Part shown: in pieces, positions 7,491 to 12,280 of the stretch
How positions within the stretch are numbered: the stretch's first letter is position 1
Layout: each line of letters starts with the position of its first letter
From: an uncultured Bacilli bacterium
Lineage (GTDB): Bacteria; Bacillota_I; Bacilli_A; RFN20; DUOF01
Direction of reading: 5' to 3'
DNA length: 64,000 bases
Assembly: GCA_934183255.1 (NCBI GenBank)
Contig: CAKPSD010000001.1
Location: 321,351-385,350 of the forward strand
The notes under the pieces: generated by a model
Database searches by the model: none
Seen by the model: only the letters and a program-made list of their open reading frames with translations
Told to the model about the DNA's origin: nothing
Translations under genes and position numbers: made by a program

Positions 7491-7814
7491 TTATCGTAAA
7501 GATGATGTGTATTTTTTATCTTTTTCTTCCATATTATTTATTATTATGTCATCACAAGCAATAATCAATGGTTCTCCATTGTCAATTGGAATTATAAAGT
7601 TATTTCTTTCATATTTTATATTTCCTAACAATGAACATCCATCATATTTTTGTATATCAATAGCTTTTAAAACATTAACAAATTCTATTTTAAGTAAAGA
7701 TGTGAACATATCTCTTGTAGATATAAAAATTAAATTATTATGATTATTTCTCAAATTTAAAATTTGATCATCACAAAATTCAATAGAACATATGTATTCA
7801 ATCTTTTTATTCAT
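7491..7814 (-). CDS. hypothetical small cytoplasmic protein (possible partner or immunity protein of the upstream secreted protein)
   Basis: ORF 7491..7853. The internal start MNKKIEY at 7814 avoids overlap with the upstream gene. Confidence 0.4.
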   Translation of the reverse strand: MNKKIEYICSIEFCDDQILNLRNNHNNLIFISTRDMFTSLLKIEFVNVLKAIDIQKYDGCSLLGNIKYERNNFIIPIDNGEPLIIACDDIIINNMEEKDKKYTSSLR

Positions 7815-7836
7815 TTTACCTTTTACCTCCAAATTA

Positions 7837-9855: not shown

Positions 9856-9868
9856 TTTATCCCCCCTC

Positions 9869-12280
9869 CTATTTATTAATTGTTTCTATCGGCCTTGTTG
9901 AAAATATATCTTTCAAAGCTAATAGGCAGAATAAATTTGTTAGAACTACCAATAAAGCAATAATCTCTATCATAGCTCCTACATTAAAATATAATACAGT
10001 AATAGTTACATTAAAACTATTACTTATAATTTTATTAATTAATGAATTAGTTAATATCCCTATGGAAATAGATAGTACAGAAACAATTATAGTAACCATT
10101 CCACTTTCAAGTAAAAATATTTTACATATATCAAAATTTGTTGCACCTAAAGACTTTAAAATTCCTATATCATGTAATCTGTCAACAATAGTAGATTTTA
10201 TTGTAGACAAAATTAATAGGCAACTAAAAATTATAAGTGTTACTATAATTACTATAAAAATTGTTTTTAAACTATCAAAAATATTATCACTTACATATAA
10301 AGCTTCACTATATGATGTATTATGTCTATAACCTAAATTTTCCAAATCATTCAACAATTGAATACTTTGATTTTTATTATCATTTTGAAGTTCCATGTAA
10401 ACTCCAGAATACATCCATGAATTTGAAACTATAATATCTTCATATAATATATCAAAATCATTATTAGAAACATATACACCACTTTCATGTTCAACCACGC
10501 CAACCACTTTATAAACTATTGACTTACTTTTTTTATTTAAAGCATCATATGAATATTCTAACCATATATTTGTGTTTAAATAATCATCAACAATAGAATT
10601 ATTATCATATATACTTTGTTTACTAATTTTAAATATTTCAGAAAATGTTTGAATATCTAGAATTATTTCATTGTCGTTTTCTATATTTCTACTATTTCCT
10701 AAAAAAGGCATATTTGCTGCAGACCATGACAAAGATAATATATTAAAATTTTGGGATGTATAATTATATTTCAATTTCATTTCATTACTTGTAAATGAAT
10801 TTAAAATACTAGAAAATTCAAAACTATCTTTTACATAAATCAAAGAGTAATCGTTACTTTTATGAACTTGGAAATTATTTAACAATTGATTAAAATATCC
10901 ATTTCTTTCATAATTTTTAAGTTTTTCATATTCTTTGTGAGAATCTTCAACAACTCCAACAATTTTAAGATTAGAACCTAAATTGTTTATTGGTAAATAG
11001 TTATTTATTATTTGATCATATGATTTAATATCTTTGTATACAAATTTTGTTATCATTTCTGCTAAATATTCACTAACTAATATTTCACCATTGTCAACAG
11101 GTAATGTACCATATTTTAATTTATGTGATATATTACTCATATTTTTCACATAAACAATTCCTTTTATTGTATTATCATAATATGGATTAGTAGAATCATA
11201 ATCATCTTCGTTACTTATATAAAGGTTAACTGCTTTTAAATAATTAAATTCTATATTATTATATTTATTTTTTAAAATTTCTATGTCATTTTTTGTTGCT
11301 GATGAAGTTTCTGTCCAGCAAACTTTTGATATTCCTTTGCCTTCACAATATTCTTTACTTTTAATTAAATTAATTGTTTCAATCCCATTGTTTTTAAAAT
11401 TATTATATGCAGAAGAACCCTTATCATATTTAAAAAAATGTAATGATGAAAATAAAAATGAAAATGTTATTGTTAGCAAAAGAATCATGTTAACAAATTT
11501 TAATTTTCTATTTTTAATATTTGATGTTGCAAATTTAAATATTCTTTTATTGCCAAGTTTACTTTTTTTTAAAATTTCTATTTTCTCATTATTTTCACTA
11601 TCATTACATTCTATAGTGTTAGATTCTATAATTCCATTATTTATTTTCACTACACCATCACTATATTTTTTGACAATTTTTTCATCATGCGTAACCATTA
11701 TAACTAACATTTTTTCTGAAATATTTTTTAAAATATTCATAACTTTATTAGCATTTTCTTTATCTAAATTTCCTGTTGGCTCATCTACTAATAATATCTT
11801 TGGTTCTTTTATAAGAGCTCGTGCTATTGCTACTCTCTGCTTTTCACCACCACTAATTTGATTAGGATATTTATAATCTATGGAAGAAATATCTAATTTA
11901 TTAAGTACTGTAGTTATTTTTGAATCCATAGATAATTCATCGCAATTTTGAAGTTCTAAAGCTAAGGATATATTATCATAGACAGTATATTCATCAATTA
12001 AATTAAAATTTTGAAAAACAAAACCAATCATTGTATTTCTATAGTAATCCAATTCTCTTGATGATAATTGATTTATTTCTATATCATCTATATACATATT
12101 TCCTGTTGTTGGCTTATCTAAGCATCCTAAAATATTTAATAAAGTTGACTTTCCACTACCACTTTTTCCAATAATAGAATAAAAGCCCTTAGATGGAAAA
12201 TTTAATGAGATATTATTTAATGCGGTTTTTCTTCTATTTTTCACTACATAAGTTTTTGTAACACCATTTAATTTAATCAT
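9869..12280 (-). CDS. ABC transporter, fused ATP-binding domain + FtsX/MacB-like permease
   Basis: Walker A GKSGSGKST, signature LSGGEKQRVAIARAL, Walker B LLVDEPTGNLD. The C-terminal ~550 aa carry a large extracytoplasmic domain and FtsX-like TM helices. Confidence 0.8.
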   Translation of the reverse strand: MIKLNGVTKTYVVKNRRKTALNNISLNFPSKGFYSIIGKSGSGKSTLLNILGCLDKPTTGNMYIDDIEINQLSSRELDYYRNTMIGFVFQNFNLIDEYTVYDNISLALELQNCDELSMDSKITTVLNKLDISSIDYKYPNQISGGEKQRVAIARALIKEPKILLVDEPTGNLDKENANKVMNILKNISEKMLVIMVTHDEKIVKKYSDGVVKINNGIIESNTIECNDSENNEKIEILKKSKLGNKRIFKFATSNIKNRKLKFVNMILLLTITFSFLFSSLHFFKYDKGSSAYNNFKNNGIETINLIKSKEYCEGKGISKVCWTETSSATKNDIEILKNKYNNIEFNYLKAVNLYISNEDDYDSTNPYYDNTIKGIVYVKNMSNISHKLKYGTLPVDNGEILVSEYLAEMITKFVYKDIKSYDQIINNYLPINNLGSNLKIVGVVEDSHKEYEKLKNYERNGYFNQLLNNFQVHKSNDYSLIYVKDSFEFSSILNSFTSNEMKLKYNYTSQNFNILSLSWSAANMPFLGNSRNIENDNEIILDIQTFSEIFKISKQSIYDNNSIVDDYLNTNIWLEYSYDALNKKSKSIVYKVVGVVEHESGVYVSNNDFDILYEDIIVSNSWMYSGVYMELQNDNKNQSIQLLNDLENLGYRHNTSYSEALYVSDNIFDSLKTIFIVIIVTLIIFSCLLILSTIKSTIVDRLHDIGILKSLGATNFDICKIFLLESGMVTIIVSVLSISIGILTNSLINKIISNSFNVTITVLYFNVGAMIEIIALLVVLTNLFCLLALKDIFSTRPIETINK

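Follow-up and report, generated by a model that had tools for sequence, protein, structure and literature searches.

Polymorphic toxins shape competition in microbial communities, and their main carriers of the Gram-positive type are LXG/WXG proteins, which depend on type VII secretion, RHS/WapA proteins and PT-TG proteins. ATP-binding cassette (ABC) transporters of the MacB type, in turn, work via extracytoplasmic partners. Machines of this family use mechanotransmission to act at the outer face of the membrane, where LolCDE extracts lipoproteins, MacB drives expulsion and FtsEX activates hydrolases, and some of its pumps, such as YknXYZ, guard the cell against membrane toxins of its own making. 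We know of no MacB-type transporter that carries proteins out of the cytoplasm, and a full-text search of a literature library turned up no paper that connects polymorphic toxins with FtsX or MacB. A locus that may combine both elements is found in a 64,000-nucleotide (nt) stretch of DNA from an uncultured Bacilli bacterium (contig CAKPSD010000001.1, positions 321,351 to 385,350; hereafter the window). It encodes an ABC/FtsX fusion protein, a modular protein of 672 amino acids (aa) with a Sec signal, and a 107-aa open reading frame (ORF), here called ORF107. With a probability of roughly 0.6, these genes form a polymorphic toxin-immunity cassette that has a new Sec-type scaffold and a MacB-type ABC partner.

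The three genes lie on the reverse strand of the window, which has ~25% G+C. The gene of the fused ABC ATPase and FtsX permease (803 aa; 9869-12280) is followed after 13 nt by that of the 672-aa protein (7837-9855), a candidate polymorphic toxin, and after a further 22 nt by ORF107 (7491-7814), a cytoplasmic protein whose position makes it the candidate cognate immunity protein. A promoter-like site is located 5' of the ABC/FtsX gene, an AGGAGG ribosome-binding site lies ahead of the 672-aa gene, and GGAGG precedes the ATG of ORF107 at 7814; an alternative start that would lengthen this ORF to 120 aa falls inside the upstream gene. A terminator-like hairpin 3' of ORF107 (7446-7470, reverse strand) marks the operon end. 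The genes form a single tight operon, and every element of the three-gene layout described in the initial annotation is present in the ORF listing where it had been placed.

The 672-aa protein (P0001) has few relatives. A word-indexed search returned one homologue, P0002 from locus L005 (66% identical), and an exhaustive phmmer search of 1.84 billion cluster representatives added P0003 from L007 (45%) and a fragment, P0004, from L008, the remaining matches being to the Ig-like domain only. No more scaffold members were found among GTDB species representatives, which gave just 26-aa chance matches in Nocardiopsis, or in JGI metagenomes (two scans, the second with a DNA pattern for YST.TYEREYLG), IMG/VR and PLSDB plasmids. 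With four loci in public sequence data the scaffold family is very rare; even so, 9-11 independent contigs from different samples, the longest of 1.03 Mb, carry the 672-aa protein in identical form. Each homologue (L005/L006, L007 and L008) has a homologous ABC-FtsX fusion 13-14 nt upstream and is followed by a small ORF that either overlaps it or starts at most 3 nt away. The toxin reading had initially been made to depend on synteny in relatives, and the trio is indeed kept in all of them. The flanking genes, an HTH_5 regulator, a P-type ATPase and CitMHS in L007 and NrtR, NAPRTase and an ABC-2 transporter in the window, are unrelated, which marks the trio as a portable unit. In L008 (1297-3237) the homologue is split by an in-frame TAA after ..AINRD, where the others have a Glu/Ala codon, and is either a pseudogene or the product of an assembly error.

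Comparison of these homologues provides the central evidence for a toxin cassette. In 30-residue windows, P0001 and P0002 share 63-93% identity at residues 31-390, 30-40% at 421-510 (a linker and a hydrophobic helix) and 67% at 511-540, after which identity falls to 7-10% beyond residue 571. Residues 1-535 are thus common to the relatives while the last ~110-135 aa are exchanged. The C-terminal type of the window (tip A) is unalignable with that of P0002 and P0004 (tip B; z=0.8), a score by which the two were rejected as divergent versions of one domain. The downstream gene behaves likewise. ORF107 sits where the relatives have unrelated ORFs and shows no relationship to the ORF downstream of P0002 (E=0.32), and the ORFs of L005 and L008, both of which follow tip B, are 70% identical. 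These comparisons indicate that the C-terminal module and the next small ORF have been replaced jointly among the homologues. A shared N-terminal region with a sharp boundary and a downstream gene that changes with the tip are defining features of polymorphic toxins, and this family has both; by polymorphic-toxin logic, the same carrier with a different tip and ORF would represent a distinct toxin-immunity pair.

Tip B connects the family to a described toxin class. In a tblastn search against plasmids, its match is the very C-terminal end of an RHS-core protein from Bacillus cereus, WJE55380.1, and the tip of P0004 is 32% identical to this protein over 97 aa (BLASTP, pairwise E=5e-11, shuffle z=13.7). 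The match covers residues 205-295 of 297, beyond the RHS core (TIGR03696 at 60-143), which is the position of a toxin tip. The gene after the B. cereus RHS gene is YxiG-like (PF24711, E=4.9e-37), and the truncated ORF of L005 matches the same family at E=0.0015, with 19.2 bits falling below the cutoff of 27, and aligns with the B. cereus YxiG-like protein (z=3.4). Homology of both the tip and its neighbour therefore ties the family to polymorphic toxin-immunity cassettes. In Bacillus subtilis, yxiG can be read as an orphan immunity gene. It belongs to the wapA operon region and shares its regulation with wapA, wapI and yxzC (PMC5717166, Table 1). Both tip B (isoelectric point, pI, 9.1) and the RHS tip (pI 11.4) are basic and their partners are soluble and acidic, suggesting an intracellular, possibly nucleic-acid, target. 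On the B. cereus plasmid (L016; CP128120.1, 77097-85267), an IS6 transposase lies immediately upstream of the RHS gene, itself a fragment of 297 aa, and genes for a radical SAM/SPASM protein and an ABC ATPase are close by; the fragment has the look of an orphan or displaced toxin tip accompanied by a YxiG-like cassette.

Tip A of the window, the candidate toxin tip delimited by its divergence from tip B (residues 536-672; 7840-8250, reverse strand), has a mildly acidic pI of 5.8 and a single marginal hydrophobic segment (598-616). The C-terminal ~135 residues terminate in HPAHKGGLSHFHPGSLTNRSNKKHSHVFYG, the His/Pro-rich tail that had been noticed at the outset. Within it lies a terminal His motif (residues 647-671; 7843-7917, reverse strand), KG..xHFHPxSxTxxS...NxxxxHxFY, which is shared only with P0003 and is the sole conserved feature of tip A. 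For the two proteins the motif gives a local score of 52 against a shuffle mean of 28.8 (z=4.7, 0/500 shuffles, pairwise E=4e-4). It is tempting to speculate that the terminal HxH...N-x4-H-x-FY forms a minimal metal-binding or HNH-like site; for the latter, the motif spans ~29 residues and its N-to-H spacing is shorter than in a typical HNH. ORF107 contains neither a signal peptide nor a transmembrane (TM) segment and has a pI of 5.1. It was rejected as a remote YxiG-like protein (PF24711; hhalign probability 0.09), as was the corresponding ORF of L007, and tblastn found no match in plasmids for the L007 tip or the L007 downstream ORF. The C-terminal region had been described as unassignable and so it has stayed, tip A matching no known toxin family and ORF107 no immunity family.

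The carrier scaffold preceding the tip is new. Searched whole and by sub-regions, the 672-aa protein has no Pfam, NCBIfam or PADLOC family of its own at E up to 10; sequence matches in the PDB, to the coiled coil of haemagglutinin HA2 and to a dehydrogenase, were dismissed as chance. The Sec signal claimed in the initial annotation is borne out by a KKK n-region, a hydrophobic core at residues 5-23 (dG -1.6) and a (V/I)xA|E cleavage site near residue 30, kept as (V/I)xA|E/Q/N in P0001-P0003; this signal peptide (residues 1-30; 9766-9855, reverse strand) has no lipobox. It is followed, on the same strand, by two Trp-rich repeats, at residues 36-125 (9481-9750) and 164-252 (9100-9366). Self-BLAST aligns 17-117 with 143-241 at 40% identity (E=3e-16), and eight copies from four proteins share the invariant motif Y-x2-W-x2-W...YEREYLG-x2-C-x8-C-x4-Y-x-YR-x-R-x-R. 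The two internal repeats rich in Trp, Tyr and Arg are therefore present as proposed, with a unit of ~90 aa in place of the ~120 first given, and this internal repetition, like the architecture as a whole, is far beyond chance. Modelled as an all-beta unit with a putative disulfide between C214 and C223, the repeat has a fold predicted at a local distance difference test score (pLDDT) of 84, with no structural neighbour among solved structures. Its W-x2-W motif, R-x-R-x-R strand (YRDRSR) and two Cys are reminiscent of the Trp-Arg ladder of thrombospondin type-1 and WSXWS modules.

Beyond the repeats lies an Ig-like domain (residues ~285-395; 8671-9003, reverse strand), which confirms the putative Ig-like middle of the protein. 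Residues 288-360 match repeats of giant adhesins of the Big_13 type in phmmer searches, the AlphaFold2 model is a beta-sandwich at pLDDT 70-80, and Foldseek matches include SiiE, SraP and SGBP-B, all Ig/BIg matches. The full-length model, built on a four-sequence alignment, has a mean pLDDT of 43.5 and gave only generic Ig matches in Foldseek. The scaffold then ends in an acidic, hydrophobic helical hairpin, a putative pre-toxin module (residues 440-535; 8251-8538, reverse strand), in which a helix of TM grade at 458-476 (dG -0.6) is followed by an amphipathic helix and, at the swap point, by the strongly conserved TAWNWIVGLFVA..VVE.I.YVDD.S. The hairpin has a net charge of -14 and a pI of 4.05. 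This charge, together with the absence of K/R for ~30 residues C-terminal of the helix, makes the helix unlike a stop-transfer anchor. The hydrophobic stretch had thus been correctly recognized, but it is a conserved pre-toxin part and not, as had been supposed, a C-terminal toxin module; the variable part begins at ~536.

The third component, the ABC/FtsX protein, carries ABC_tran (E=3.5e-32) and FtsX (E=4.3e-11) Pfam domains on one polypeptide, and its Walker A, signature, Walker B and H-loop are all intact. By hydrophobicity analysis, the N-terminal nucleotide-binding domain is followed by TM1 (262-280), an extracytoplasmic domain of ~390 aa and TM2-4 (673-789). An ABC domain joined to FtsX, four TM segments and a large extracytoplasmic domain between TM1 and TM2 are the hallmarks of MacB-type (type VII ABC) proteins, and the topology is accordingly predicted to be of this type; MacB_PCD (PF12704) found no match in the protein at E up to 0.1. 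The best NCBIfam match of the ATPase domain is TIGR03608, of lactococcin-972-type bacteriocin ABC proteins (E=1.1e-60), at a score of 204.6 bits, below the cutoff of 254.85. Models for lactococcin-972-type, FtsE, LolD and MacB proteins give near-equal scores, all below their cutoffs, which places the domain in the lactococcin-972/FtsE/LolD/MacB clade, yet in none of those equivalogs.

The divergence of the ABC/FtsX protein follows that of the scaffold: identity to the window is 65% against 66% in L005 and 47% against 45% in L007. Kept with the scaffold whatever the tip type, the transporter is unlikely to confer immunity against the tip, and since it evolves in step with the scaffold it most likely handles the hairpin. 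On this pattern of conservation, release or handling of the hairpin is inferred to be a more likely role than neutralization of the tip. As MacB-type transporters are not known to move cytoplasmic proteins, any export by this one would have to take place after Sec export, by release or extraction, or else serve self-protection.

More distant fused ABC-FtsX proteins, 24-28% identical to that of the window, extend the comparison. L011 (1315-9565) encodes a signal-peptide protein of 667 aa whose genuine PT-TG domain (29.3 bits, Pfam cutoff 23.5) lies between two hydrophobic helices. Next come ORFs of 173 aa and 123 aa, the second a lipoprotein, and then two fused ABC-FtsX genes in tandem (892 and 854 aa). 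The PT-TG protein has no homology to the 672-aa protein of the window (hhalign probability 0.13). L014 (241-6916), on a contig of 19.7% G+C, has a 124-aa secreted protein and polytopic membrane ORFs of 294 and 196 aa ahead of two fused ABC-FtsX genes; none of the small proteins has a Pfam match, and the arrangement resembles a bacteriocin locus. The association of ABC-FtsX fusions with toxin genes in distant relatives, including the unrelated toxin-like gene of L011, is suggestive only and might reflect a wider link.

How such a cassette might operate can be outlined as follows. Sec would export the 672-aa protein, whose repeats and Ig domain would bind the envelope of a competitor. The hairpin may anchor the protein in the membrane of the producer and later aid passage of the tip across the target membrane. 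Tip A would be the toxic part, acting within the target cell, and ORF107 would protect the producer and its siblings by neutralizing it. ABC/FtsX would act on the conserved hairpin from the outside of the membrane and may extract or release the tethered toxin, as LolCDE does with lipoproteins; alternatively, it may expel toxin that has re-inserted and so provide self-protection, in the manner of YknXYZ and lactococcin-972-type pumps. A two-step release route combining Sec with a MacB-type ABC, in which the hairpin parks the toxin and ATP-driven mechanotransmission extracts it or hands it over, is put forward tentatively and is considered unlikely.

Several observations weigh against a toxin cassette. 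Tip A has no homologue in phmmer searches of the 1.84 billion representatives, in Pfam, in the PDB or, by tblastn, in plasmids, and ORF107 has no match in Pfam (E up to 10), NCBIfam, PADLOC or, again by tblastn, plasmids. The tips of P0001 and P0003 share only their terminal ~29 aa and their downstream ORFs are unrelated. The AlphaFold2 model of residues 392-672 is unusable, with pLDDT below 50. The YxiG match of the relatives comes from a truncated ORF scoring under the Pfam cutoff (19.2 against 27 bits). The comparison draws on four loci, of which L005 and L008 are close relatives, and thus on ~2 independent swaps, and the ABC relatives in L012, L013 and L015 have no toxin-like neighbour. 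Toxicity of the window tip is argued by analogy with the relatives, and the role proposed for the transporter is inferred from its conservation and family. Furthermore, with a TM-grade helix behind the Sec signal, the tip would normally be expected to stay in the cytoplasm of the producer. The initial suggestion of a toxin-immunity locus holds in part: the tip and ORF swaps and the RHS-tip homology speak strongly for it, while neither tip A nor ORF107 could be placed in a family of toxins or immunity proteins.

The same topology is what would be expected if the 672-aa protein were a membrane-anchored surface protein or adhesin whose MacB-type partner acts as FtsEX does with PcsB, CwlO and EnvC, the fast-evolving C-terminal tail being cytoplasmic and non-toxic and the ORFs unrelated passengers. 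An Ig-like domain and beta repeats are typical of surface proteins, the helix at 458-476 behind a Sec signal would give an N-out, C-in orientation, the use of extracytoplasmic partners by MacB-type transporters is well established, and the missing family matches of tip A and ORF107 also count in its favour. What it leaves unexplained is the homology to an RHS tip with a shared YxiG-like downstream gene and the abrupt breakpoint after a highly conserved segment, and a helix whose C-terminal flank lacks K/R over more than 30 residues, in a region with a net charge of -14, does not look like a stop-transfer sequence. An adhesin is accordingly regarded as rather improbable.

A bacteriocin in the style of lactococcin 972, with the hairpin as the membrane-active agent, ABC/FtsX as the main immunity pump and the tail and ORF secondary, seems distinctly improbable. 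The top NCBIfam match to TIGR03608 points in this direction, as do the co-variation of the ABC with the hairpin-bearing scaffold and the ABC relative in L014 that stands beside a small secreted protein and membrane ORFs; pumps of the YknXYZ kind protect against self-made membrane toxins. However, the TIGR03608 score of 204.6 is short of 254.85 and is almost equalled by FtsE and LolD, no Lactococcin_972 domain is present, and a multi-domain protein of 672 aa that has swappable tips and comes with soluble ORFs fits a polymorphic toxin better. A decaying remnant, in which tip A is degenerate and non-functional and the small ORF spurious, would account for the extreme rarity of the family, the in-frame TAA in the L008 homologue and the absence of tip A homologues. 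It is very improbable given that at least 9-11 independent contigs, from different samples, encode the identical 672-aa protein, that the three ORFs are intact and have strong ribosome-binding sites and that the terminal motif is kept between P0001 and the 45%-identical P0003. A polymorphic toxin-immunity cassette remains the preferred reading.

Other features surround the module. Lipoprotein genes of ~216-228 aa flank it both in the window (12390-13040, forward strand, divergent from the ABC gene) and in L007 (12692-13378, reverse strand). The mature parts of the two lipoproteins are similar (z=5.0, 0/1000 shuffles; BLASTP E=1e-4) and have a C..T.C.YY motif in common; orientation, divergent in the window and convergent in L007, and position both differ. 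On this weak similarity, the lipoprotein may be a fourth component. Convergent with the operon, and sharing its terminator region, is a 108-aa ORF (7146-7472, forward strand) with a central hydrophobic segment and a coiled-coil-like C-terminus (KELEKELEKIKRDCCNNNP); it has no family match and was seen neither in L007 nor in the short contigs of L005 and L008. The module is adjoined on its other side by an unrelated ABC-2-type transporter operon (13099-17496) comprising a 610-aa permease with a long extracytoplasmic insert (13099-14931), ATPase genes at 14915-15829 and 15829-16767 and a divergent TetR-family gene (16927-17496). Elsewhere in the window, a radical SAM/SPASM enzyme gene identified with Pfam (1550-2635, reverse strand) is directly followed by a 39-aa ORF (1430-1549, reverse strand), MNGLRIMMKYHKVLEMSGKDSWSHTPWANDSWQDSHSKD, in which a DSW motif is repeated. 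The pair (1430-2635) looks like a maturase and precursor peptide of a ribosomally synthesized and post-translationally modified peptide, possibly of the streptide-like type with a Lys/Trp crosslink.

The locus displays an invariant genetic tie between a polymorphic-toxin-like carrier and a MacB-type ABC. The two-step release route, if real, would give wall-bearing gut bacteria of low GC content a new toxin-delivery pathway and the MacB/Lol/FtsEX superfamily a new task. Tip A, with its HxH...N...H motif, would form a new toxin-immunity pair with ORF107. Handling of the toxin by the ABC would additionally offer a testable model for release from the membrane of the producer and crossing of that of the target.

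Among described systems, WapA/WapI of B. subtilis and other Sec- or RHS-type polymorphic toxins in the Zhang and Aravind classification offer a close parallel: a Sec signal, a large extracellular carrier and a tip swapped together with a small cytoplasmic immunity gene are found in both. Tip B is moreover homologous to an RHS tip, and a YxiG-like gene follows both. In contrast to WapA/RHS proteins, the 672-aa protein lacks RHS/YD repeats and an RHS core with DPxG; neither RHS_repeat nor TIGR03696 was detected in it, whereas the B. cereus comparator has both. WapA also has no obligate fused ABC/FtsX partner, unlike the 672-aa gene. The PT-TG toxins exported by Sec (PF14449), such as the 667-aa protein of L011, follow the same plan, with an extracellular region, a hydrophobic helical pre-toxin module and a C-terminal domain between the signal peptide and the small downstream ORFs, and the L011 toxin likewise stands beside fused ABC-FtsX genes distantly related to that of the window. 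A PT-TG or LXG-like toxin had been considered initially and neither emerged from profile searches. PT-TG is absent from the 672-aa protein and from its residues 436-535 by hmmscan at E up to 10 (the L011 control scored 29.3 bits), and LXG/WXG100 has no Pfam match in a protein that begins with a classical signal peptide. The lactococcin 972 cluster is similar in plan, placing a Sec-exported antibacterial protein beside an ABC of the MacB/FtsX family. The candidate toxin of the window is ~7x larger, has a modular, polymorphic build and comes with a soluble immunity candidate, and Pfam detects no Lcn972 domain in it, in keeping with the sub-cutoff TIGR03608 score of its partner. As in MacB, LolCDE and FtsEX, that partner pairs an ATPase with a four-TM FtsX permease bearing a large domain between TM1 and TM2, in the fused, MacB-like form. 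It differs from MacB in its ~390-aa extracytoplasmic domain, which lacks MacB_PCD, and in being paired with a polymorphic-toxin-like gene.

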